DNA of 29,818 bases from a bacterium (lineage in GTDB: Bacteria > Bdellovibrionota_C > UBA2361 > CALJRW01), in NCBI GenBank assembly GCA_031385045.1, contig JANNBC010000035.1, positions 1 to 29,818 on the forward strand, read 5' to 3'. The translations under genes were made by a program, and so were the position numbers. The notes beneath the pieces are model-generated. The model was not told the origin of the DNA. It ran no database searches and worked only from the letters and a program-made list of their open reading frames with translations. Each line of letters opens with the position of its first letter. The first letter of the stretch is position 1. Shown piece after piece: positions 4,580 through 24,506 of the stretch.

Positions 4580-5551
4580 TTAAATATGTTGAGTTAAATA
4601 TCGGTCACTAGACCATTGTTTTCCGTCCCGCACCATCGCATTTAAAGTAATTAGTAGCTTTCTCATACAGGCTACGATAGCAACTTTTCCATTTTTCCCA
4701 GCTTGAACTAATCGAAGGAAAAAGTTTTTAAAGCAAGGATTCATCCGAATAGCTGTCATGGTTGCCATATATAATACTGCTCTGACATGAGTTCTTCCGC
4801 CATAGACAGAACGTTTTCCTGAGTATCGACCGCTTTCTTTGTTAAAAGGAGCTACTCCTACAAGTGCTGCTATTTGCTTTCGATTAATTTTCCCGATTTC
4901 TGGCAGTAATGCAATCAAAGTTGCAGAGGTAGTCTGACCTACACCTTGTATATTTTGTAATAACTGATTTTTATTAGAGAAATCATTATTATCACTAATC
5001 TTAGTTTTAATTTTTTGATTTAAGGTTTTAATTTGTTTATTAATAAAATGAACTACTTCCTCGACTGACATTCTGACTTCTTCTGTTATTACAGGAGCCT
5101 TTAATCTGTTTTTCTCTGCGGTTAAAGTTTCTACCAACTGCTCCCGCCTTAAAATCAGGCTTTTAAGCTCCTTAGTAGCCTCATCCAGAGGTTTCGTTCT
5201 GACAGGGTTCATCCGCTCTCCAAATAGACAGAGAATCTCAGCGTCCAGTAAATCACTCTTCGCATTTCTACCAAGTGACCTAGCAAAGCTCTTCGTCCGG
5301 CTAGGATTTACTACAGAGACAGCTACGCCTTCTACCTGCAGTGCTTCAACAAGCTTCTGCTCGTATCCACCAGTAGCCTCAACAACCACCAAGTAAACAG
5401 CTGATGTTTTAAACAGTTCTACTATTAATTTAATTCCAGAAGAAATATTCTTCTTTCTCATTCTCCTGCAATCTGAAAGATGCACATCTAGGTAATCTTT
5501 GGAAACATCAATCCCAGCATATATTTTATTTGTCATTGACCTTATCTCCAT
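4580..5551 (-). CDS. IS110-family DEDD recombinase/transposase
   Basis: GIDVSKD, VEATGGYE, KSDLLDA (RuvC-like DEDD), IQGVG, and GVAPFNKESG (catalytic Ser loop). Confidence 0.95.
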   Translation of the reverse strand: MEIRSMTNKIYAGIDVSKDYLDVHLSDCRRMRKKNISSGIKLIVELFKTSAVYLVVVEATGGYEQKLVEALQVEGVAVSVVNPSRTKSFARSLGRNAKSDLLDAEILCLFGERMNPVRTKPLDEATKELKSLILRREQLVETLTAEKNRLKAPVITEEVRMSVEEVVHFINKQIKTLNQKIKTKISDNNDFSNKNQLLQNIQGVGQTTSATLIALLPEIGKINRKQIAALVGVAPFNKESGRYSGKRSVYGGRTHVRAVLYMATMTAIRMNPCFKNFFLRLVQAGKNGKVAIVACMRKLLITLNAMVRDGKQWSSDRYLTQHI

Positions 5552-5762: not shown

Positions 5763-5777
5763 TTTTCAACATACAAG

Positions 5778-5976
5778 GTTTTTCCTAACAGCTTGGAAAA
5801 AATCTAATAGATTTTTCAGTGTTTCGGGTTTTAGTATATTTGTCTTCCCCATTATTTAGCCTTATAAAATAAGGCTAAATACCTTGGCGACCCCCAAGGG
5901 TCGCTTTAAGCGCTTCGCGCTTGATATACTAGGCGACTAATTTTAGAACAGTAATTTCTAATGTCGCCTAGTATAT
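5778..5976. repeat. Multi-hairpin dispersed repeat, copy 1 (5' arm missing at IS110 junction)
   Basis: Near-identical to 16340-16534; tandem palindromes such as TATTTAGCCTTAT-AAA-ATAAGGCTAAATA and GCGACCC-CCAA-GGGTCGC. Confidence 0.9.
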
Positions 5977-13810: not shown

Positions 13811-16087
13811 CTATTCTCCCTTAACTCTTAAGGTGAAAAATGGAGTCTCGACGAATGAGTGATCGCTATTTAGTAAACTAAATGTATCTTCTGATTTAAT
13901 TAATCTGCTATTAAGTATAACATTAGGGTCTATTTTTTGAGCAATTTTTGTTATTTGACGAATTCTCTTTTCGGGTCTGTTTGCTTTAATCCACTTAACT
14001 TTGAAGTTTGGATCAGTAAAACATTTTTTCCCTAGGAAGATAATATTTGAACTTAATTGTGTTTTTAAATTCTTGCTTGTCATCAATTTGATTGTTTTTA
14101 ATCTTTCGTAACTCTCACGACAAGTATTCTTACTTCCCGCTGAAAAAATTAATCCCGAAAATTCCTTCAACAAACTAGGATCGTTTTTTATTAAATTGAA
14201 ATAATCATAGACGAGATTAAAGTTAATCTTTGCATCGTAGGCGAACCAGTCCCTAAAAAACATTTTAAAAGTTAGTTCTTTGGAATCAAAAAATAAATAT
14301 TGAGGTAATTTTACATCAGAGTTTATTAAAGTTTCGGGAAGTGTAAATATTCTATAATTAGCAATTCTTTTATTTAAGACTAGCAATTTAGTTTTCACAA
14401 ACAATTTATTTATTTTCTTGAAGCTCTCTCGATCTGTTGTAATTAAGACCTTCACGCCCAATATCTTTAGCTTCTCAATCATTAATTTGGGTTTTTTTTG
14501 AGGATTATTATAATAGTTAAAAAGGTATAATTCTTTACTTCCCCAGACCATTTGATTCGTTTGTAATCCTAAAGTTGGATTGATTAGTGATGAATAATAA
14601 GAAGATTCAGCTAAAAGTCCATTTTTGATTGGAATCTTATATTTGAGTGGTAATAGATATGAAGCGGCGTGTAGTGAGCCTATTTCTAAGCGAAAAAAAT
14701 AACTTTGCTCAATTGCAACACCTGAAGTGAGATTATGCTCAACTAAATATTGGGCAACCCGATCTAGGTCTTGATATCCTTTATAATCATTCAGTAATAA
14801 ATTAGATTTTTGATATTTAGGATCGCTAATATATAGCATTTGAAAAGAGACAGTGAGTAATAAAATGACTGCAAGTAATATCCCACCAAGTATTTTTTTG
14901 GTATAACCTTGAAAGTGATCAGACTCCTTAATTCCATAGGCGATAATAAAGATAAACATGAAACTAAGTAGCCCTGTAAAGCGATAGTAGTGAATTGAAA
15001 GGGTACTTAATCTTATTAAATAATTTCGAGGCAAGAATATAAATAAAATAATAATTGTTACTAGAAACCCTGTTAGTCGTTTTTGGTTTTTAATAATTAT
15101 AATAGACCCCTTAATTCCAAAATATAAGGCAATTAACGCGTAGTATGGGAATTGACTAATGATTAGTGGTAAATCAATTTTATAATTGAAAAAGTTGAAA
15201 CTATTGCTAAAATTTGCGTTCAACATCTGTGTAAAATGTTCGATATTGAGATTTGGAAAGATGACTAACAATGGATCTAAAAAGGAGCCGTGAAGACCAA
15301 TAGCCTCTGAGCTAGAAAATTCAAGATTATTAATAAAGATCCAGTAATATGGGGAAGTAACTATTAAGGCACCTACAATGATCAACAACCATTTCTTAAG
15401 GGCTCTTTCATTTGCCTGAATTGTCAAATAGATTGATATAAATATTAAAGTAAAGACTGCTGTCAGGATATGGTTAAGTAGAATTAAGCTCAGTAGTAAG
15501 ATTGAAAGATAACAAGAGCTAGTTATTTTTAATTCAAGTTTTCGAATTTGGGCAAATAATAATAAGAATAGAATTAGTCCTGTACTATTTGATAGAAACC
15601 CAGCATAAAATACACCCGCTAGTCCTACAAAATGTGTCGAATAGATAATATTAGTATGTAAGATTAGAGTTAGTACTAACATTACATATTTCCTAGATTT
15701 AACTCCTAGAAGATATTTTGTAGTCCAATAAGAAGTTATTACTAGAAATTGAGCTTGAAGATAAATAAATAAATTAAAACTAAACGTTAGATCGTCTGAG
15801 AAAGTTATCAGGTGTAATAGATTAATTAAGATATATGTAAGTGGTGGATATAGAACAAATAGTGCAGTTCCTGAGAACCAGTTAGGATCGTAGCCAAACC
15901 AAGTTCCTGATGCTAGGAATTCTTGCATTTTATAGCTCAAGTAAAGATGTCCTGGAGTATCCCACCCAGCGATTGGCAGACTTGAAACTATATTGAAAAG
16001 GCTCAAATGGACACAGCAAACAGCTAGAATTAGAGATATAATATTATAATTAATTCTAGTTAAGCCAATCAAACGCTTGAAATTCAT
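13811..16087 (-). CDS. Polytopic membrane protein, GT-C-like (so-called PTPS-related family)
   Basis: GWDTPGH, YDPNWFSG..LFVLYPPL, NHILT, YRF; many TM helices plus a soluble C-terminal domain. Confidence 0.7.
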   Translation of the reverse strand: MNFKRLIGLTRINYNIISLILAVCCVHLSLFNIVSSLPIAGWDTPGHLYLSYKMQEFLASGTWFGYDPNWFSGTALFVLYPPLTYILINLLHLITFSDDLTFSFNLFIYLQAQFLVITSYWTTKYLLGVKSRKYVMLVLTLILHTNIIYSTHFVGLAGVFYAGFLSNSTGLILFLLLFAQIRKLELKITSSCYLSILLLSLILLNHILTAVFTLIFISIYLTIQANERALKKWLLIIVGALIVTSPYYWIFINNLEFSSSEAIGLHGSFLDPLLVIFPNLNIEHFTQMLNANFSNSFNFFNYKIDLPLIISQFPYYALIALYFGIKGSIIIIKNQKRLTGFLVTIIILFIFLPRNYLIRLSTLSIHYYRFTGLLSFMFIFIIAYGIKESDHFQGYTKKILGGILLAVILLLTVSFQMLYISDPKYQKSNLLLNDYKGYQDLDRVAQYLVEHNLTSGVAIEQSYFFRLEIGSLHAASYLLPLKYKIPIKNGLLAESSYYSSLINPTLGLQTNQMVWGSKELYLFNYYNNPQKKPKLMIEKLKILGVKVLITTDRESFKKINKLFVKTKLLVLNKRIANYRIFTLPETLINSDVKLPQYLFFDSKELTFKMFFRDWFAYDAKINFNLVYDYFNLIKNDPSLLKEFSGLIFSAGSKNTCRESYERLKTIKLMTSKNLKTQLSSNIIFLGKKCFTDPNFKVKWIKANRPEKRIRQITKIAQKIDPNVILNSRLIKSEDTFSLLNSDHSFVETPFFTLRVKGE

Positions 16088-16320: not shown

Positions 16321-16534
16321 ATATACTAAAACCCATTGGGTTTTTCCTAACAGCTTGGAAAAAATCTAATAGATTTTTCAGTGTTGGGTTTTAGTATATT
16401 TGTCTTCCCCAGTACTCAGCCTTATAAAATAAGGCTGAGTACCTTAGCGACCCCCAAGGGTCGCTTCAAGTGCTTCGCACTTGATATACTAAGCGCCTTT
16501 GCCTTTTTGGTAATTTTCAATGTCGCTTAGTATA
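16321..16534. repeat. Multi-hairpin dispersed repeat, copy 2 (apparently intact)
   Basis: 15-bp perfect stem 16321-16335/16385-16399, then hairpins at 16412-16442, ~16446-16465, ~16466-16484 and 16485-16534; homologous to 5778-5976. Confidence 0.9.
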
Positions 16535-16634: not shown

Positions 16635-18437
16635 ATGAGCACCTCAGTTTTTTTAATTTTATTAATTCAATTATTCTCTTGGATTCTCTTGGTTTCTTAT
16701 CCTGAAGACTGGCAAGCTTTTCATTTGAGATTATTATTACTATTTTCGTTAGGCTACTTAATTTTTATTTACCGGAAGCTTCTTCCCGCCTCTGTCATTG
16801 TTCCATTAGTAGCAATTCATCTTGTAGAATTCATATGTTTTACTCAAATAATTATATTTGACTTTGAGTTACAAGCATTTGTTATTTATTACACCTTACT
16901 ACTATTTATTTTTTGTTTAAGTTTTAAAGATAGATCAAATGAAATAAGTATTATTAAGATTGAAAAATCTGATCAGTTATTATTAGCAATTAGCATTCTT
17001 TCGATTATTATTACTCCACTAGCATATTCATCTTTTACCTATTTTAAATTAACGGATACAATTACAGCCACTTGGACTGCTGTTGAAAATTTAATAAATT
17101 TTAATAATCCCTACAGCAATCCTGAATTAGAAGAAGGTTGGCATAATACAGCTATTCATCAGCAGAATTATATGTATCCTCCTGGAATGCTGGCACTTTA
17201 TTTGCCACTACACGGCCCTTTTATTCTCCTTGGGGAGAAGTTTAAGTTACTCGGAATTTACTTTTCGAATATATTTCTAACCTTAATATCTATTAGATTA
17301 TTTTACTTAATCCTGAGAAATTGGTTATTAAACAATAAGTTGATTCTAGTGAGTACCTTGTTATTTGCTTCTTCTCCCTTATTGTTATTTGAAGGTGTAT
17401 GTAGAGCAACCAATGATCTTGCTCCAATATGTCTAACCTTAGCTGGGATTTATTTTCTTTCTAAGGAAAGAAAGTTAATCGCATATCTATTTCTATTCTG
17501 GGCAACTTATACAAAGTGGTATCCAGGAATATTTGTTGTCTATCTTGCATTTAAAGATTTTCATCAAAAAAATTATCAGACTCTTATCAAGGGAATGTTA
17601 ATTGGTGTTGGCCTTACTTTGGTGCTTTTTCTTCCATTTTTCTATGATGATGCGGATGCTTTAATTTCTGATCTGAGCTGGCAAGCGAAACGTCCAATTC
17701 AAGATTGGGAGTTAGGGCTAAATCCAGAAATTTGGATTTTCATTTTAAGTGCCATTCTTTGTTGGAAAGTATTTTTTAGAACAATCTATGAGCAATCTCA
17801 TAATTTGCTAGTACCAATTATTACGATTTTTTTATTTGTTTTATTAAATAGAGTTTATCATACAAACTATTTACTTTGGCTTTTGCCCTTAATCTTTCTC
17901 CTGCCTGACTATCTGCGATTAAATAGTCCTTTGCTGTTAAACGGAGTCAGCTACGTTCGTATTGGGTTGCTAATTTTTGGAGTAATTGGCTTAGGTTTGT
18001 TTAATTACTTTATAGTTTATTTTCCAACTCCAAGAGTAATTAGCAGTGAAACTTTCAATGATCAGATAGTAATTGAATACTATAATCCCTGGGCTAAATC
18101 TGTATATCTTAGGTGGTGGTCAGATAATATGCTGCAACCGATTGAGTTTCCTGGAGACGCACCGATTTTTAATGCTAAGACGGATTTTGCTGTGCGAAGT
18201 CTAATGACACCACTTCAGGGTAGTAGGTTCCGCATTCAATTGCCAATTTCAAGTGATCGTCATATTATTAACTATGAATTTTGGTATAGTTTTACTAAGG
18301 AGGTGGATCGCCAGAAATTATTAAGAAGTCCTACTAAATTAGTACCTAAGGAATTTCCTCAGCAGATTTTTAATCTTTCGGATGATTTTATTTTTGATAA
18401 TAATTCCCATCTTTATTGGCGACATGTAGTTGATTAA
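16635..18437 (+). CDS. GT87-like (GT-C fold) membrane glycosyltransferase with a C-terminal beta-sandwich domain
   Basis: NPY..YMYPPG, SPL, ATND, TKWYP, LPF and YLLWLLPL pattern typical of GT87/DUF2029-type proteins. Confidence 0.7.
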   Translation: MSTSVFLILLIQLFSWILLVSYPEDWQAFHLRLLLLFSLGYLIFIYRKLLPASVIVPLVAIHLVEFICFTQIIIFDFELQAFVIYYTLLLFIFCLSFKDRSNEISIIKIEKSDQLLLAISILSIIITPLAYSSFTYFKLTDTITATWTAVENLINFNNPYSNPELEEGWHNTAIHQQNYMYPPGMLALYLPLHGPFILLGEKFKLLGIYFSNIFLTLISIRLFYLILRNWLLNNKLILVSTLLFASSPLLLFEGVCRATNDLAPICLTLAGIYFLSKERKLIAYLFLFWATYTKWYPGIFVVYLAFKDFHQKNYQTLIKGMLIGVGLTLVLFLPFFYDDADALISDLSWQAKRPIQDWELGLNPEIWIFILSAILCWKVFFRTIYEQSHNLLVPIITIFLFVLLNRVYHTNYLLWLLPLIFLLPDYLRLNSPLLLNGVSYVRIGLLIFGVIGLGLFNYFIVYFPTPRVISSETFNDQIVIEYYNPWAKSVYLRWWSDNMLQPIEFPGDAPIFNAKTDFAVRSLMTPLQGSRFRIQLPISSDRHIINYEFWYSFTKEVDRQKLLRSPTKLVPKEFPQQIFNLSDDFIFDNNSHLYWRHVVD

Positions 18438-18581: not shown

Positions 18582-18703
18582 ATCTAACTCAAGAGTTGGG
18601 TTGTTGCCTTCGGGCTTCTCCAAACGCAAGGGGAATCTGTAAAAATGCCTTCGGAGATAGGCGCAGGTTCTGACGGCTTAGATTTAACAAACTAGGGTCT
18701 CTT
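18582..18703 (+). ncRNA. Candidate structured RNA of unknown family
   Basis: GC-enriched patch in an AT-rich intergenic region. GCC-TTCG-GGC hairpin (18606-18615), GAATCTGT/GCAGGTTC stem enclosing GCCT/AGGC, G-U-rich closing stem 18596-18605/18672-18681. -10-like TATGAT at 18573-18578. Confidence 0.5.
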
Positions 18704-18705
18704 AA

Positions 18706-20451
18706 TCAAATTTCGCCCAACTCTTTTAAACAACTTTTGTAAGTTGCTTTGGTAATAAAAATTAAATGTTTTAAGTTACATTTAGTTAATATTTTTTCTC
18801 CATCCTCGTTGACCATTCGGTAATTAGACATCCATGATTGCGATAGTGTTTCTGTGTATGGCAAATTCTCTGGTTCCACCTCATTAGCATTTGTTACTGC
18901 AACATAGTTGTGTTCTTTAGTCTCTGGTGAAAGTTCCCTACTTAAGTCGATATTTTTACTTTGGGTAAAAACGGAAGCATAGTCATAGGCCGTCTTAATT
19001 GCTAATTGATTATCCGTTTTTCCAAGGAGCTCTGTCGTATTATTTAAGGCATTAACTGTAAAATTTGCTGTGCCAAATAATAATTCTTTCCGATCAACAA
19101 TAATTACTTTCATGTGCGGAAAAGGATACTGATCTTTCACTACGTCACCAGAGTAAAATTGATTGGCAAATTCTTTACTGATTACCGGTGATTTAAAGGC
19201 TAACATCACATAAACCTTAAGGCCTTCTTTTTGTTTCTTAAGTAAAGCATTGGCAATCGATCGATCGGTGAGTTTGTAAGATGTAACAATAATCTCTTCT
19301 TTCGCCTGATTGATAAAATTTAAGACATATTGCTTTAAATCGTGATCTTCGGAATTAACAAAGTAACCAGAACGATAAATTTTTGACTCAGGGTTGTTAA
19401 CAGGACAATTCCGAGTAATTAATTCTGGAATATGAGAACTTGTTTCTTCGCTATAAAAATTTGCTAAGCATTCATAATCTTCTTTTCGTTCACAAAATCT
19501 TTGGTTATTATTTTTAGAAATAGAAAGAAACTCATCCCGTATTTCGGGACTATTAAAGAAAAAATTTAGGTCAATATAAGGTGTTCTATCCGGAGTAGCT
19601 AAATTCATCGATGCCAGCATTGATTTATTGGTCTGGGGACTAGCAATAAATTTAATATGATAGAAATAATCAAAGTTATATCCGCTTGTAAGGGGGATAA
19701 ATTGAGCATACGGAGCAGTCTCAAGAATTTTAGCAATTCGGATCTCTTGGTTGTTAAAGAGCGAGACGCCAGCATCATAACTGAGTACCAGTTTCTTATT
19801 AGTCTTTACTAAATCTTCAGAAAGAGAAGATAGCAATTGGTTTCCAAGGGTCATCGTTGAGGTGTGTATTTCTTGGAGGTTCGGATCATTAATATACTGC
19901 CGCAGTAATTCGCTAAATGGTTCAAATGGATGCAACTTAACTGTAACATCGTGGATAATTTTTGATTCTACTCCTAATATTTTTGGTTTTGATTTATCTA
20001 AGAGACCTGCGAGAGTAACTTTACCATGGCAATTCCGTAACTGTTTCTTAGGTCTAAAAGTATCTAGAATATTACGTTTGCAATATCCTAGTTGTAAACA
20101 AGCTTTTTCCAAGAAACCTGATTGATCAATATAGAACTTAAGATCTGATTTCATAAATTGCTCAACAAGCGGAATAACTGGCTTGGGCTTACGAATATCT
20201 CGTAGTGAACGTAAGAAACGTTCACAAACTAAGGCGGCATTTATTACTGGTGTACTGTAGAGGTTTTCAAAATTAATTTGATATAGCTTGCCTTGATAGT
20301 TAATTTCTAAAGTTTTGTCTTGAACACTTGAACAGGAAGTATTTTGTTGAATATACTCAAAAGGTATTTTAATTGTTTCTGCTTTTACTACGGTTGAGAT
20401 AGATGCCCAGGCTAGAATTACACACAGTAGAATCATTTGATTAAATCTCAT
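18706..20451 (-). CDS. Exported phospholipase D-superfamily protein (two HxK modules)
   Basis: Signal-peptide-like N-terminus (MRFN..LLCVILAWASISTVVKA), degenerate HIKFIA...ASMN, and canonical HMKVIIVDRKELLFGTANFT; Cys-rich. Confidence 0.85.
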   Translation of the reverse strand: MRFNQMILLCVILAWASISTVVKAETIKIPFEYIQQNTSCSSVQDKTLEINYQGKLYQINFENLYSTPVINAALVCERFLRSLRDIRKPKPVIPLVEQFMKSDLKFYIDQSGFLEKACLQLGYCKRNILDTFRPKKQLRNCHGKVTLAGLLDKSKPKILGVESKIIHDVTVKLHPFEPFSELLRQYINDPNLQEIHTSTMTLGNQLLSSLSEDLVKTNKKLVLSYDAGVSLFNNQEIRIAKILETAPYAQFIPLTSGYNFDYFYHIKFIASPQTNKSMLASMNLATPDRTPYIDLNFFFNSPEIRDEFLSISKNNNQRFCERKEDYECLANFYSEETSSHIPELITRNCPVNNPESKIYRSGYFVNSEDHDLKQYVLNFINQAKEEIIVTSYKLTDRSIANALLKKQKEGLKVYVMLAFKSPVISKEFANQFYSGDVVKDQYPFPHMKVIIVDRKELLFGTANFTVNALNNTTELLGKTDNQLAIKTAYDYASVFTQSKNIDLSRELSPETKEHNYVAVTNANEVEPENLPYTETLSQSWMSNYRMVNEDGEKILTKCNLKHLIFITKATYKSCLKELGEI

Positions 20452-22688
20452 ATCAGTTTTTGATTGTAAAAATTTAAATCAGCTATTGGTTGGGCGCAGA
20501 CTGATTTGTTTCGCTGAGCATAAGGATGAATTGTTCTTTGGGCTATCAGATAGTCTTGTAAGCTGGCAATAAACTTGGCCTGTGGATCAATTATATTCTT
20601 GAAATAATAATATTGATTTAAAAAAAAGATTTTTTTGCTAATCAAAAAATTATCATAAGTCTTTAAATTTACTTGTTGATAACAAATATAATTAAAATTA
20701 TTTTTTTTAATTATTAGCAAAGATCCTGAAAGATCTTGTGCCACATATTTATTAACATTAAAATAATTATTAAGAGCTAGATTGTAATGTTTAAGCTTCA
20801 GTCTTCCAGTTTGAACAATTTTACCTCGGTTTATTTCTAATCTAGGTAGATTCTTAAGTTCAGGAATGATTTCTTCTAAGGGAGCCCCTGATTCTGCAAG
20901 TCGAAAGATTTCTTCTTTGAAGATTAATTTTAAATAAAATTTATTTCTTACTTTTTGCAGAAGTCTATTTCTAAATTCAAGTGCATAATAAAACTTATAA
21001 ATATTTAAGAGTGTTAATTTTAGATCCAGATTTAAATCAATTTGGTGGATCGCAACGATACTTAAGCTTTTGAAATCTTCCAGAGACATTGCTGAAGATG
21101 ATGAAACTAAATAAAGACCAGCAGAATATTTAGAAATTAGTAAATCTTTCTTAAAAGGTAAGGCATGTTTGATTCGATCTAACCTTAGATCTCTTTCGTA
21201 AAATGCTATCAAATAAATATTTGTTTTGTTGGTTTTTAGTTGCTGTGCTCGCAGTTGCAATTGTAAGGTTTCTGGATTACACAGCGGCAGTTCTCGACGT
21301 GCTTTTTTAATCCGACTAAGTATAAATGGACTAATATTAAAATTTAGATTCTTATAAAGTAAGATGCTGGCAAGCAAGAAAGTTATTATTTCAATCAAAT
21401 AAACTGTTTGCAAGTTTGCTTTTAAATAATTAAAGAAAAAACTCTGTAGCGGTAATCCTACTAGGAGAAAGATGCTGGCAATTTGACGGTAATGATAACG
21501 ATCTAAGGCAAGTGACTGAATCTGACTGTAGATAATAAAAAATAAAGTATGAGCAATCATTGCTAAAGGTAGCAATAATAAGAATTCTTCGAGTGTAATA
21601 GGAATAAATAAATAAAATGATTTTGAAAAAAGTACTAAACTAATAAAGCCAGTTACCAGAAGTAGACTTAAGATCAGACTAAGTTTTAGGATTCGGCGAG
21701 CCAGAAAGCTAGCCTTTTTCGTTAGTCCGTGCTTAGCGGTAGTATAGATATCAAATAGTGCCGAGCGACAAATCTGTGTAGTAAAAAAAACGGCAAAGTT
21801 AAGGCTAAAAAAATAGATAATATTAGTAATCCAAGCATTTAAGCTTCTTTCGAATATAATCAAACCAAGGCCTAGGAAATAACAGGGTAGGATAGCATTA
21901 AAGTAAAAATATTTTCGGGCTAACTTGTTGTTAAGATATCTTGAGATAATTCGAAAAAATCGGAAGGGCTTCTTTTTTCTTTTCCAAGTAAATTTAAAAT
22001 CCAAGGCCTTTATAGCAAGTTTAATTAAATAAATACTTTCAATTGCTCTTCCAAGGAATAGGGCAAAAATATAGCTAAGTGGACCAGCTAGCGCTCCAAA
22101 AAGTAGTAGTGTAATGCTTGGTAGGAGTCGACAACTTGCAACGATCAGGGCACTTCGCGGAAGTCGTCGGCTAAGATAAACCGTATTCCAAAGTTGTGTC
22201 GTGCATTGCTCTAGCGGTATTAGTAAGCACCAAGTAAGCACAAAATATCCATTTAATTTACTAGAAAAATTTAGCGTCAGGCAGAGTGTGCTAATCAGTA
22301 GTACAAAGATTAATGAACAAGCAAAGTTTACAATTAAGGCTTTGCTCAGTTCGATATTGATGGCACTAGAATTCTTAGCGACTACTAACGGCATAAGTCG
22401 TACTCGAAAAAACTGAGTAATTCCCTTAAGCGCTCCACGACTTATAAAGATAATAAAAATATATAGTGTTAAGTCACCAAAGACATTATAGCTAAAAAGC
22501 TGATGAATGATTGTGACTTCTGCAAGAAGAATTAAACGAGTAATCAGTTTAAATAAAATAGGCCACTTGATTCGATAAATGAGATAAGGGAGATAGGACC
22601 ATAAGTCATATTGCTGTAATCCTTGCTCAACAACCTTACGTCGTTTTTGATCTAAACTGGAAATCTTTTGTAGCTCGGAGAATTTCAT
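20448..22688 (-). CDS. Polytopic membrane protein, MOP (MATE/Wzx/MurJ) flippase-like N-terminus plus ~300-aa soluble C-terminal region
   Basis: About 12 hydrophobic segments in aa ~40-450 in two similar halves, each with an amphipathic cytoplasmic helix (RLMPLVVAKNSSAINIELSKAL; ALFDIYTTAKHGLTKKASFLARRIL). Family call is by pattern only. Confidence 0.55.
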   Translation of the reverse strand: MKFSELQKISSLDQKRRKVVEQGLQQYDLWSYLPYLIYRIKWPILFKLITRLILLAEVTIIHQLFSYNVFGDLTLYIFIIFISRGALKGITQFFRVRLMPLVVAKNSSAINIELSKALIVNFACSLIFVLLISTLCLTLNFSSKLNGYFVLTWCLLIPLEQCTTQLWNTVYLSRRLPRSALIVASCRLLPSITLLLFGALAGPLSYIFALFLGRAIESIYLIKLAIKALDFKFTWKRKKKPFRFFRIISRYLNNKLARKYFYFNAILPCYFLGLGLIIFERSLNAWITNIIYFFSLNFAVFFTTQICRSALFDIYTTAKHGLTKKASFLARRILKLSLILSLLLVTGFISLVLFSKSFYLFIPITLEEFLLLLPLAMIAHTLFFIIYSQIQSLALDRYHYRQIASIFLLVGLPLQSFFFNYLKANLQTVYLIEIITFLLASILLYKNLNFNISPFILSRIKKARRELPLCNPETLQLQLRAQQLKTNKTNIYLIAFYERDLRLDRIKHALPFKKDLLISKYSAGLYLVSSSSAMSLEDFKSLSIVAIHQIDLNLDLKLTLLNIYKFYYALEFRNRLLQKVRNKFYLKLIFKEEIFRLAESGAPLEEIIPELKNLPRLEINRGKIVQTGRLKLKHYNLALNNYFNVNKYVAQDLSGSLLIIKKNNFNYICYQQVNLKTYDNFLISKKIFFLNQYYYFKNIIDPQAKFIASLQDYLIAQRTIHPYAQRNKSVCAQPIADLNFYNQKLI

Positions 22689-23967
22689 GCTTTCTTGGGT
22701 AAATATTTTTGTAATTTAATACGGAGAATAGACCTGCCTCACGGATTTGTCTGTAGGGAACTTTTCGAAAAGCGCTAGAGCGGGAACAGTTTTCGACCAG
22801 CGCTATGATTGTCTCAGCAATCCAGATATCAAATTCTTCAATTCGTTTTTTATCCGTAGCAAATAGGATTAGATCATTATAATTTTTATAGTAGTTTAAA
22901 TCTTTGAGAGTAAAATTTAAATCTCTAATCAAGTTCTGATATTGCATTTCTTTGGTCAGGCCTAGCTTGTGATATTTGCGGTATGCATTAAATAACCTAC
23001 TTTTTATGTCTTTTTTAAGTTTTTTAAACTTATAGGATTTTAAGAAAATTAAGCCTTGATCATTAATTTGGTATCCTAAGTAATCAAAAGTTCTTTTTGT
23101 TTGATAGGGTAGTTCCTCTTTACTAGATAGCTCTTGACCACATTTGATAAAAACTTCTTTGTCGGGGTGAAATTTCAGTTCCCTTTGCTTAATTTGTTCT
23201 TGATACTTAGCTAAAATAAAATTTAACTTTTCTCTGTTTTGATCTGCAAATATTATGTCATCACCATAGCGGACATAAAAATCTAAATTATTTGCTGCCA
23301 GATGATCTAGATCTTGTAGATAAAAATTAGCAGCAAAATTTGAAAGACAAGCTCCAGTTGGAATGCCAATTGCTAGTTGCTCTTCTAAGTCTCTTTCTGG
23401 ATCATAGTAGGTAGGCTGTAGAAAGCTTTCTACTAGTTTCCAGAAATAGGGCTGCTGCTCTCCAAAATTTTCTTTTAATTGAGTGATTAAGATTTTACTG
23501 TTGATATTGTCGTAGTAGGATTTAATGTCCCTTTTTGCTATGTAAATTGAACTATCTTGGTTCTTTTGAATATATTTACAGAGGCTTTTCACTGCCTTTT
23601 TATTAGAAAAAGTCTTACGATAAGAAAATAATTGCTTGGAAAAGATATCTTCGCTGACCTCAAAGAACAGTTTTGTCAAAGCATAGTCCATAATTTTATC
23701 AACCCAGTTGATATTATAGATAGTTCTTTCTTTATCAATGAAAATAGTTTTTTTAACTCTTAATTGTGGCTGGTAGGTTTTCTTTTTTAAATTTTGTAGA
23801 TAGTAGTCTACCAATAGGTCTTGATTATTTACGCACCAACCTAAAGACATTGATTTTTCAATTGGAGCTGATTGTAGGATTCTTGGCTTAGAACTTTTTT
23901 TGCTTTTTAGGTGTGCGATTACAGCTAGAAAGTTTTTAGAGGCGGATAGTTCTTGTAATAAATTCAT
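22636..23967 (-). CDS. Reverse transcriptase, group II intron-like but not within an intron
   Basis: TYQPQ, ERTIY..WVDKI, FSKQLFSYR, KRDIKSYYDNIN, GIPTGACLSNFAANFYL, YVRYGDDI, FDYLGY, and thumb-like FDIWI...GLFSV. Confidence 0.92.
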   Translation of the reverse strand: MNLLQELSASKNFLAVIAHLKSKKSSKPRILQSAPIEKSMSLGWCVNNQDLLVDYYLQNLKKKTYQPQLRVKKTIFIDKERTIYNINWVDKIMDYALTKLFFEVSEDIFSKQLFSYRKTFSNKKAVKSLCKYIQKNQDSSIYIAKRDIKSYYDNINSKILITQLKENFGEQQPYFWKLVESFLQPTYYDPERDLEEQLAIGIPTGACLSNFAANFYLQDLDHLAANNLDFYVRYGDDIIFADQNREKLNFILAKYQEQIKQRELKFHPDKEVFIKCGQELSSKEELPYQTKRTFDYLGYQINDQGLIFLKSYKFKKLKKDIKSRLFNAYRKYHKLGLTKEMQYQNLIRDLNFTLKDLNYYKNYNDLILFATDKKRIEEFDIWIAETIIALVENCSRSSAFRKVPYRQIREAGLFSVLNYKNIYPRKHEILRATKDFQFRSKTT

Positions 23968-24011: not shown

Positions 24012-24506
24012 TTATTTGATTCTTGTAAGCTGTGGTTTTTTTGTATCTGAAGGAGCTGGTTCAGGTTCTTGTTCATTTGTAGAGCTATTTAATTTGGGAG
24101 TAGAGCTAATTTTATTAACTGCTAACTTAGGCTTTTTGATACTTTCCATTTCTGAAGCTAAGTTTGCATAGGAATCTGTGGAAAGACTCTCCGGCCAAAT
24201 ATAATTTTTCTGGGCAGTAGTAGTGCATCCCCAAATCGCCCCAAGTGGAATTTGGCAAGAAAAATGCTTTCCATTAAACAGTAGCTCGGCTGAGATAGAT
24301 TCCTTGCTAATTACGGTAAGGCCTTGAAAATGATAACTTAATTTAAGGGTTAAGGTTGGACCACTGAGGAAGCTTTCCGGAATAATCACCCCTGGATATG
24401 CGGGATTAAGATGAATTAAAATAAACTGATCCTGACTTATATGGGTCTCTAAAGTTTGGTGTTTTTCATCAGTATTAGCAAATGTCATATACCTAAAGTA
24501 ACCCAC
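24012..24506 (-). CDS. sspB: ClpXP adaptor SspB-like protein
   Basis: PGVIIP, LKLS, AELLFNG...CQIPLGAIWG core, disordered linker, and C-terminal KKPQLTRIK ClpX-binding-like tail. Confidence 0.8.
   Translation of the reverse strand: MGYFRYMTFANTDEKHQTLETHISQDQFILIHLNPAYPGVIIPESFLSGPTLTLKLSYHFQGLTVISKESISAELLFNGKHFSCQIPLGAIWGCTTTAQKNYIWPESLSTDSYANLASEMESIKKPKLAVNKISSTPKLNSSTNEQEPEPAPSDTKKPQLTRIK

Follow-up and report, generated by a model that had tools for sequence, protein, structure and literature searches.

A conserved pair of reverse transcriptase and MOP-type transporter with a candidate structured RNA and clade-specific exported partners

In the reports considered here, systems of a reverse transcriptase (RT) and a non-coding RNA (ncRNA) work within the cell, most of them to signal phage infection. 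According to the available parts of two reports, DRT10 consists of a UG17 RT, a SLATT protein and a separately expressed ncRNA of about 140 nt (137 and 143 nt) with a basal stem, and its RT has a conserved C-terminal serine, S456 (10.1101/2025.10.16.682844; 10.64898/2026.04.29.721553). For UG26, the available part of a third report gives a YcjD-like nuclease as the partner in 9 of 35 members (PMC9226505). Here I describe a locus in which the obligate partner of the RT is a flippase-superfamily transporter. The window, that is, the whole stretch of DNA analysed, is 29,818 nt long (GCA_031385045.1, contig JANNBC010000035.1). The features are as follows.

22636-23967, minus strand: RT, an ORF of 443 aa
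20448-22688, minus strand: MOP-type membrane protein (transporter), an ORF of 746 aa; in the AF2 model, a MOP domain (about 25-460), then a soluble alpha/beta domain (about 470-560), then a low-confidence tail
18706-20451, minus strand: PLD enzyme, an ORF of 581 aa
18591-18725, plus strand: candidate structured ncRNA of 135 nt, from conservation and a CM match
24012-24506, minus strand: sspB-like gene upstream of the RT, outside the system

The four parts (RNA, RT, transporter, and PLD) span 5.4 kb. As stated in the first-pass annotation, the three protein genes are co-oriented and overlap, by 53 nt between the RT and the membrane protein (22636-22688) and by an ATGA on the minus strand between the membrane protein and the PLD (20448-20451), and a gap of 44 nt separates the RT from the sspB-like gene. 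Since two genes part sspB and the RT in a same-genus genome, the sspB-like gene was not counted in the system. A GT87 gene also adjoins the system in the window and is missing from the same-genus locus. A promoter and terminator scan gave nothing better than shuffles. No description of the system was found in the literature searched, and it is apparently undescribed, as had been suspected; a term search of one supplementary file of PMC9226505 returned no transporter or PLD term, although other supplements could list members. Its composition suggests that the system delivers newly synthesised DNA, or a signal derived from that DNA, across the cell membrane. If the product crosses the membrane, this would be a dedicated route to make and export DNA from an RNA template. 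If it stays inside, the RT-RNA family remains large and unstudied, and its membrane partner is of a new kind.

Is this gene arrangement conserved? The family comprises 139 non-redundant loci across many phyla. The transporter adjoins the family RT in 114 of the 117 non-redundant loci with at least 1 kb downstream, versus 1 of 10 for other RTs, the transporter HMM having been seeded from 102 of these loci picked by position and TM count. The model gave 14 matches in 11 of the 124 genomes of the phylum, where a genome has up to three paralogs, and every match lies next to a family RT. The RT and transporter genes overlap or abut at 103 of 123 loci, a count that took the nearest start and is hence biased towards small gaps. 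The two trees are congruent (rho 0.917, n=86; 42 of 54 well-supported splits in common), which shows long linkage and not co-evolution as such. The RT and the MOP transporter are the conserved core, and the transporter is an obligate partner. A chance neighbourhood of a stray retroelement RT and envelope genes would draw only on the moderate similarity of the RT to group II intron RTs; it is refuted by the linkage, the congruent trees and the conserved RNA, and can practically be dismissed. The RT had been proposed to pair with both the transporter and the PLD. This holds almost universally for the transporter; the PLD is clade-specific (25 of 139 loci), and among the other RT homologues it is swapped for a lipoprotein or Wzz/Wzc, or neither was found.

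By record title, many of the named carriers belong to predatory or host-associated groups (Polyangia and other Myxococcota, Bacteriovoracaceae, Coxiellaceae, Legionellales, Rickettsiales, and Chlamydiales), and Gaiellales, Binatia, and further free-living groups are carriers as well. The 80 named genome records obtained are all MAGs, and surveys may have overlooked the system for this reason.

RVT_1 is the sole Pfam domain of the RT (E 8e-20). The catalytic motif YGDD occupies residues 234-237, and YGDD or FGDD is present in 81 of 86 family RT rows. The C-terminal GLxS motif holds S415, which is near-invariant (81/86 rows) and may be the priming residue. Priming on S415 as in DRT10 would tether the DNA to a cytoplasmic protein and require its release first, a point against export. 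The top PADLOC group for the window RT was UG26 (110 bits), a model that comes without a cut-off; the placement is by profile scores. Drt9 scored 88 bits. UG26 ranks first or second among the named groups for most of the 42 RTs tested and its profile is often matched almost end to end, with scores of 59-161 bits for single-domain RTs versus 270-430 bits for members on the family's own model. Against solved chains, the family profile scored 78 bits for G2L4 and 120-128 bits for group II, CRISPR-RT, and DRT9 RTs; chain 9ioa (499 aa), which I take to be DRT9, scored 122 bits. The RT was initially called group II-like, which these scores do not establish. Judged from its sequence, it is probably a member of an unnamed clade nearest to UG26, UG17, and DRT9/DRT10 (class 2 UG/DRT-like), with scores below member level.

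Several known classes were rejected, most of them in agreement with the first-pass annotation. For a group II intron, no Rfam match was found in the window, genes overlap the 3′ end of the RT and adjoin its 5′ end at 44 nt, and TIGR04416 (group II RT/maturase) gave 108 bits with a cut-off of 300. For a DGR, the repeat search of the window revealed no TR/VR pair, and no avd match was found among the 22 window ORFs scanned. For a CRISPR-associated RT, the window has no array and the same ORFs gave no cas1 match; the Cas1_IIIb PADLOC match to the RT concerns the RT part of a fusion model. For a retron, NF038233 gave 40.8 bits with a cut-off of 235, and the VTG motif of retron RTs is present in only 2 of 86 family RTs. 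Membership of the UG17 (DRT10) clade was also rejected; the UG17 profile score of 97.7 bits is below those of UG26 and the generic RT model.

The membrane protein has no Pfam match, and a word-based homolog search retrieved only the protein itself. Its AF2 model (mean pLDDT 69) bears out the MOP-type fold proposed earlier. Residues 25-459 match MATE/Wzx/MurJ (Foldseek E 5e-7), and VIA gave a Z of 29.9 for MATE1 (rmsd 3.7 over 423 residues), 21.8 for WzxE, and 21.3 for MurJ, with the next unrelated row at 7.6; no match was found in the viral fold library. The protein is thus predicted to be a MOP-superfamily transporter with about 12 helices, and R39, R95, R175, and D313 are near-invariant. A degenerate GGDEF was not supported for the soluble domain; hhalign gave a probability of 1.2% versus 0.6% for the reversed control, none of 62 transporter C-terminal pieces matched GGDEF, and no GGDEF protein was found in the own genome. 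Complex prediction gave a score of 0.35 (best control 0.00), a weak support. Of 157 solved complexes, 116 attain this score, as do 2 of 215 mismatches, but just 18 of the 157, along with both mismatches, do so at 0.60 or below. At least 49% of contacts recur between runs, and the partner pLDDT is at least 78.

The ESM Atlas neighbours of the transporter are Polysacc_synt flippases (0.91; 198 of 256 features). This likeness, the Wzz/Wzc genes at three loci and the GT87 gene adjacent in the window would fit an RT-RNA that merely regulates an ordinary lipid or glycan flippase, with the PLD remodelling lipids, no nucleic acid crossing and no defence. Such regulation is very unlikely, in view of the conserved catalytic residues of the RT, the absence of a conserved glycosyltransferase neighbour across the family loci and the absence of GT87 from the same-genus locus. 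The 127 flanking genes are mixed housekeeping genes; that they show no glycosylation-cluster enrichment also counts against export.

The PLD protein matches PLDc_2 (E 4e-16). It has a full HxKxxxxD motif at H446/K448/D453 and an N-terminal HxK without the Asp at H265/K267, one sister clade having HxR in the second motif, and a hydrophobic N-terminal stretch (signal) is present in 20 of 24 5′-complete homologs. These features support the earlier reading of an exported PLD-superfamily enzyme with two HxK motifs. Within its clade, the PLD is found at 24 of 24 untruncated loci. A lipoprotein is the alternative partner at 46 loci; 35 of 37 have a lipobox-like sequence, compared with 104 of 1016 other neighbours. 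Its C-terminal domain gave no useful Pfam, PDB, or Atlas match, it has no likeness to the PLD, and its single-sequence AF2 model had a pLDDT of 33.6, too low for use. Wzz/Wzc occur at three loci; L059 and L146 have the domains, and L153 falls into the same cluster. Every third partner identified is an exported protein, of a type that differs by clade. At 68 of 139 loci, neither PLD nor lipoprotein is nearby; many of these are short contigs, and long Actinomycetota loci are also among them. This gap speaks against export.

The closest solved relatives of the PLD are the nucleases NucT (E 1e-10) and MitoPLD/Zucchini, and their being plain nucleases is a further point against export. The NucT likeness and the many predatory or host-associated carriers would fit import. 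In that reading, nucleic acid from outside (prey, host, or phage) is trimmed by the exported PLD nuclease, the fragments enter through the MOP protein, and they serve the RT-RNA as a primer or trigger for recording or sensing. However, characterised MOP proteins act as exporters, the lipoprotein does not resemble the PLD, and Gaiellales, Binatia, and other free-living groups carry the system too. Import is therefore quite improbable.

The 44-nt upstream gap had been judged too short for a retron msr/msd. In effect this was wrong, as the gap does not exclude an RNA; the candidate RNA sits on the opposite strand, beyond the end of the PLD gene. The sequence at 18591-18725 (+) is a candidate fourth part of the system, a putative structured ncRNA that is convergent with the operon, shares 20 nt with the 3′ end of the PLD gene, and is single copy in the genome. 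In the predicted fold, a basal stem pairs 1-10 with 126-135 and is followed by a hairpin P2 and a long hairpin P3; a pseudoknot can form between the P3 loop and the strand that follows P2, and the single-stranded 3′ linker is a candidate template. In the first 87 nt, 81 are identical to L021 (93%), with four-fold sites in that comparison at 31-46% identity, i.e., synonymous sites are saturated. CM R1, built from two sequences, found a match upstream of a paralogous RT (L022:6702-6840, E 4e-6). It missed the RNAs of L023 and L032 even with filters off, so RNA homology across clades rests on shared architecture. The RNA strand is opposite to the RT in 11 of 25 family RNAs. Folding alone does not fix the strand of the window RNA (z -1.6 plus, -2.9 minus). 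Its pseudoknot is only 5 bp and was equalled by 29 of 200 shuffles; by a permissive criterion, the family count was 17/25 versus 230/600, and a second family-level test picked the wrong P2 for the window RNA. MAFFT alignments of the divergent RNAs are out of register and unusable for pair counts. No universally conserved U-tract template was seen in the family RNAs. An A-B-A template repeat, a DRT10 feature, was not above chance (17/25 versus 16.8 expected; 50/70 versus 45.4), and this and the short pseudoknot are again points against export.

Does the system serve phage defence? In a DRT10-like antiphage reading, the MOP protein replaces SLATT as the toxic membrane effector; it is gated by protein-primed cDNA from the RT-RNA and acts through ion leak or lipid-carrier trapping, and the PLD or lipoprotein serves as an additional sensor or effector. 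The layout of RT, ncRNA, and membrane protein is the same, the RNA is similar in size with a basal stem, the conserved C-terminal serine (S456 in DRT10) has a counterpart in S415, the closest RT groups are UG26, UG17, and DRT9, and the spread over genomes is patchy. Nevertheless, the system is outside a defence-island context; PADLOC at 1e-15 matched 11 of 143 neighbours in 17 loci, and only 2 resemble real defence genes. No family RT was found in viral contigs or plasmids with the queries used. A pore effector needs less than an obligate 12-helix transporter and an exported partner, and the PLD is fixed in its clade. On this balance, I consider defence of this kind unlikely, though a serious alternative.

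The reading that I tentatively prefer, at somewhat less than an even chance, is that an RT-RNA complex docked on the transporter makes a short DNA, which is then handed outward for the PLD to process. It draws on the linkage, the congruent trees, the weak complex prediction, the basic residues of the transporter, the exported third partners, the few defence neighbours, and the mixed housekeeping flanks. The separately transcribed RNA would bind to the RT and give it a scaffold and a template, like the RNAs of DRT9 and DRT10. The RT would sit at the cytoplasmic side of the transporter and copy the single-stranded 3′ loop into short DNA, with its own C-terminal serine or a lipid carrier as the primer. 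The Arg-lined MOP protein may move the anionic product, or a lipid-linked form, across the inner membrane, where the exported PLD would cut it or transfer it to an outside acceptor via a phospho-histidine intermediate; other clades would use a surface lipoprotein or Wzz/Wzc proteins at this step. The outcome of such export or transfer would be a nucleic-acid product on the envelope side, which need not be an abortive-infection toxin. More speculatively, and rather doubtfully, this may be a Wzx-like pathway for nucleic acid, in which a telomerase/DRT-type RT-RNA builds a defined oligodeoxynucleotide on a membrane carrier, the flippase turns it outward, and the PLD, the lipoprotein, or Wzz/Wzc-assisted machinery attaches or displays it, so that bacteria tag or coat their surface with programmed RNA-templated DNA.

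How does the system compare with known ones? Like retrons, it has an RT, an ncRNA closed by terminal inverted repeats, and a partner gene, but the VTG motif is rare, retron models score far below cut-off, the RNA strand is often opposite, and the RT is closer to the UG and group II lineages. The UG26 partner in the available part of PMC9226505 is a YcjD-like nuclease, whereas the partners here are the transporter and the PLD, and no YcjD/COG2852 nuclease was found among the window ORFs or the 127 flanking genes. DRT9 (UG28 RT and ncRNA) shares an RT with a structured RNA as scaffold and template, a role proposed here, but works without a transporter. In the available parts of the DRT10 reports, the similarities are a class 2 UG-like RT without fused domains, a tightly linked membrane protein, an RNA of about 140 nt with a basal stem (predicted here), and the C-terminal serine. 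The partner, however, is a 2-TM SLATT in DRT10 and a MOP transporter of about 12 helices here, with no PADLOC or Pfam SLATT match at the window locus; an exported third partner is present, the UG17 profile gives just 98 bits, and the system lies outside defence islands. With the Wzx/Wzy-type and MurJ flippase pathways, it shares the MOP fold with its conserved arginines and acidic residues, a processing partner that is exported, and, at three loci, Wzz/Wzc; the linked synthase here is an RT with an RNA and not glycosyltransferases.

The window is a complete contig of a 2.83-Mb genome. The three ORFs described in the first-pass annotation, their overlaps of 53 nt (RT/membrane protein) and ATGA (membrane protein/PLD), and the 44-nt gap to the upstream sspB-like gene agree with the ORF listing. 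A candidate RNA lies behind the PLD gene. The features are as follows.

18591-18725, + strand: candidate ncRNA behind the PLD gene, with a 10-bp closing stem
18706-20451, - strand: PLD (581 aa)
20448-22688, - strand: membrane protein (746 aa)
22636-23967, - strand: RT (443 aa)
24012-24506, - strand: sspB-like gene

In Pfam, the RT, which has a YGDD motif, matches RVT_1 and the PLD matches PLDc_2; the 746-aa membrane protein has no match in Pfam, PADLOC or NCBIfam. The trio has a GC3 of 0.26-0.30, inside the genome's 5-95% range (0.24-0.33). A same-genus genome has an orthologous trio (locus L021; amino-acid identity 71/58/61%), where the RNA-PLD-transporter-RT block and two neighbouring genes have exchanged positions and the RNA moved with the block.

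Other features of the window were also recorded. A repeat of about 160 nt occurs at 5777-5938 and 16339-16498 (100% over 47 nt, 89% over 118 nt), with one copy beside an IS110 transposase gene (4580-5551) and the other between the genes for a 758-aa membrane protein and a GT87-family protein; the repeat is possibly an IS110 end, a bridge-RNA region or a derived mini-element. The 758-aa protein (13811-16087, - strand) has about eight predicted TM segments and no Pfam, NCBIfam or PADLOC match; L021 encodes its ortholog (71%), and contig C24 encodes a paralog (29%). The GT87-family membrane glycosyltransferase gene (16635-18437, + strand) is missing from the same-genus locus; it stops 153 nt short of the RNA, which is on the same strand, and read-through into the RNA could occur. 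Two more RT fragments of 262 aa are encoded on contigs C40 and C31 of the same genome; their score on the family model is about 104 bits, and they are not family members.

The AF2 model of the membrane protein (12-row alignment) has a confident helical domain up to about residue 460 and an alpha/beta domain at about 470-560 (pLDDT 53-71), beyond which the tail is unreliable. Foldseek matched the model to the MATE/Wzx/MurJ (MOP) superfamily (E 5e-7), and VIA-align gave Z 29.9 (rmsd 3.7, 423 aligned), with 14 MOP chains at Z of at least 19.9 and the next entry at 7.6. Thus, the predicted fold places the protein in this superfamily, as the MOP-type identity first proposed would have it. The soluble domain was also tested for a GGDEF identity, which is unsupported. 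Among 86 homologs, conservation of residues R39, R95, R175 and D313 is 90% or higher, and there are additional basic columns; judging from helix order and assuming the MOP topology, these positions may lie at the cytoplasmic helix ends. The ESM Atlas features resemble Polysacc_synt flippases (0.91), and an ordinary flippase under regulation is a quite improbable explanation of the system.

Is this gene pair common? In a phmmer search of 1.8 billion representatives, 39 matches had E<1e-30 and 502 had E<1e-10; among the best 150 matches listed, nearly all fit a family model along its length. RT-bearing loci were drawn from relatives, metagenomes (best 80 of 105) and species genomes (best 80 of 175, all of them MAGs). 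The 177 loci were reduced to 151 at 90% identity. Of these, 139 reached 200 bits or more on the family model and were counted as family loci, and the remaining 12 carry other RTs. The first-pass annotation had made co-occurrence of RT homologues with both partners its test. With an HMM seeded from 102 of the same loci, chosen by position and TM count, the transporter was found in 114 of 117 family loci having at least 1 kb downstream, against one of 10 other RTs, and that single locus is a partial family member. The PLD is present in 25 of 139 loci and is clade-specific.

In the window's phylum, the transporter model hit 14 places in 11 of 124 genomes, every one next to a family RT; one further locus was missed (36 bits there). 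In 103 of 123 loci, the RT and transporter genes either overlap or adjoin. The RT and transporter trees are correlated (Spearman 0.917; best of 999 permutations, 0.248) and have 42 of 54 supported splits in common. A chance association is hardly credible.

By record titles, carriers include Polyangia, other Myxococcota, Bacteriovoracaceae, Bdellovibrionales, Coxiellaceae, Legionellales, Rickettsiales, Chlamydiales, Gaiellales, other Actinomycetes, Binatia, Anammoxibacter and Margulisiibacteriota. Genome G001 has three divergent copies of the whole system (L021, L022 and L023) and G037 has two (L024 and L027). L168 is the only locus seen with the transporter gene upstream of the RT. P0148, P0099, P0054 and 21 related proteins form a well-supported subclade (24 representatives) whose C-terminus is unlike the family motif.

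The third partner is variable and, judged from sequence, is exported wherever found. A PLD is present in 25 of the 139 loci and a lipoprotein in 46; the other 68 have neither. The PLD is characteristic of a single RT clade of 29 loci (support 0.90), 24 of which carry it; the sequences of the remaining five stop less than 1.5 kb from the RT. The PLD gene of L023 and of L179 is in divergent orientation instead of downstream, and in L023 the RNA lies between the divergent PLD and RT genes. In a largely myxobacterial clade, a lipoprotein gene is mostly directly upstream of the RT and RNA. The stalks of these lipoproteins vary (EGF, STIG1 or MopE), whereas their C-terminal domain is conserved and has no known family; a lipobox-like N-terminus was found in 35 of 37 complete lipoproteins versus 104 of 1016 other neighbours. 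In these surface lipoproteins (L126:5149-6606 and 45 other loci), the C-terminal domain is Cys-rich, about 300 aa long, with conserved His and Arg motifs. Different signal-peptide proteins are the partner in L025/L028 and L040/L143, and a gammaproteobacterial subclade (L059, L146 and L153) has Wzz/Wzc chain-length-regulator domains encoded immediately upstream of the RT. No conserved third gene was seen in the long Actinomycetota loci. PLD-family enzymes use a phospho-histidine mechanism, with which both hydrolysis and transfer are possible. Import of nuclease-trimmed fragments is improbable.

The predicted structured RNA appears, from sequence comparison, to be a conserved component of the system. 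It is identical to its entirely intergenic L021 counterpart at 81 of the first 87 positions, while four-fold codon sites of the two genomes are 31-46% identical. Among the six changes are two by which an A-U and a G-C pair become G-U when read on the + strand, and this favours the + strand. A CM built from these two RNAs found one copy in the window's own genome and a homolog upstream of the paralogous RT in L022, sense to the RT (E 4e-6); it did not recover the candidate RNAs of L023 and L032. In the PLD clade, 25 candidates were selected for their closing stem, and a UCAA motif was used in part to set their orientation. In 16 of the 25, the stretch that follows the first hairpin forms a pseudoknot-type pairing (score at least 13) with the loop of a later hairpin in the same RNA; this score is reached by 115 of 594 cross pairs and, on the opposite strand, by 0 of 25. 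The script mis-picked the window RNA's own hairpin; its pairing is 5 bp, not significant alone (29 of 200 shuffles). The RNA is antisense to its RT in 11 of 25 candidates, as expected of a separately transcribed RNA. Family-wide, 70 of 128 regions upstream of the RT contain a hairpin whose loop is of the YGCG type, and nearly all of these regions belong to loci outside the PLD clade; such a hairpin occurs in 42 of 332 control windows. Two-sided changes are seen at 8 of its 10 predicted pairs (44 sequences). Rfam gave no match for the RNA.

The catalytic aspartates of the RT are invariant, and among 86 sequences the motif reads YGDD in 48, FGDD in 33, YCDD in 4 and LGDD in 1. PADLOC on 42 RTs usually gave UG26 as the best named group, at 59-161 bits for single-domain proteins, far below the 270-430 bits of members on the family's own model. 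Against solved structures, the family profile scored 128 bits for GsI-IIC, 125 for Cas6-RT-Cas1, 122 for a 499-aa chain that I take to be DRT9, and 78 for G2L4. These profile scores suggest a class 2 UG-like family sister to UG26. Double-RT-domain proteins, about 800-840 aa in length (L193:6872-9268, L195:297-2819 and P0152; records titled Anaerolineae and Anaerolineales) are sister to the RT family, and their best PADLOC group is UG26, in two stretches.

Complex prediction for the RT with transporter residues 1-565 gave 0.35 versus 0.00 for the best control (contact agreement at least 49%, pLDDT at least 78), weakly supporting a contact: of 157 solved complexes, 116 reach the mark, as do 2 of 215 mismatches, but with scores of 0.60 or less it is reached by just 18 of those 157 complexes and by both mismatches. 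Beyond the established linkage, folds, motifs, conserved RNA and exported third partners, I tentatively favour, at somewhat under an even chance as a whole, a reading in which the RNA would serve as scaffold and template of an RT operating at the transporter, and an anionic product would cross outward and reach the PLD.

At 1e-15, PADLOC matched 11 of 143 neighbours (17 loci picked randomly from 62 long ones), a raw count without a genome-wide background. Nine of the matches seem to reflect generic domains (ABC ATPases, methyltransferase-like, protease, desulfurase, kinase); the other two, a Fic protein and an AriA-like ATPase, could plausibly act in defence. Among the 127 of 148 listed flanking genes compared with Pfam, likewise without a genome-wide background, there are assorted housekeeping and metabolic functions, one integrase and one Wzc.

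The combination of an RT with a MOP-type transporter and a PLD had been thought undescribed, and a search of the non-subscription literature gave no RT paired with either partner. The parts compared were from PMC9226505, PMC8632793, 10.64898/2026.04.29.721553, 10.1101/2025.03.24.645077 and 10.1101/2025.10.16.682844; the main text of PMC9226505 has neither 'phospholipase' nor 'PLD', and one supplementary file is likewise without a match. In DRT10, synthesis is primed on a conserved serine at the C-terminus (10.1101/2025.10.16.682844). The present family likewise keeps a serine near the RT C-terminus (S415, 81 of 86), and the A-B-A template pattern of DRT10 is at chance level in its RNAs; a DRT10-like system whose cDNA gates a membrane effector is possible, if on the unlikely side. 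The system appears to belong to none of the families tested. This RT-RNA-transporter system with clade-specific exported partners is real and conserved, and apparently undescribed, and its RT-RNA core probably works like DRT9/DRT10.
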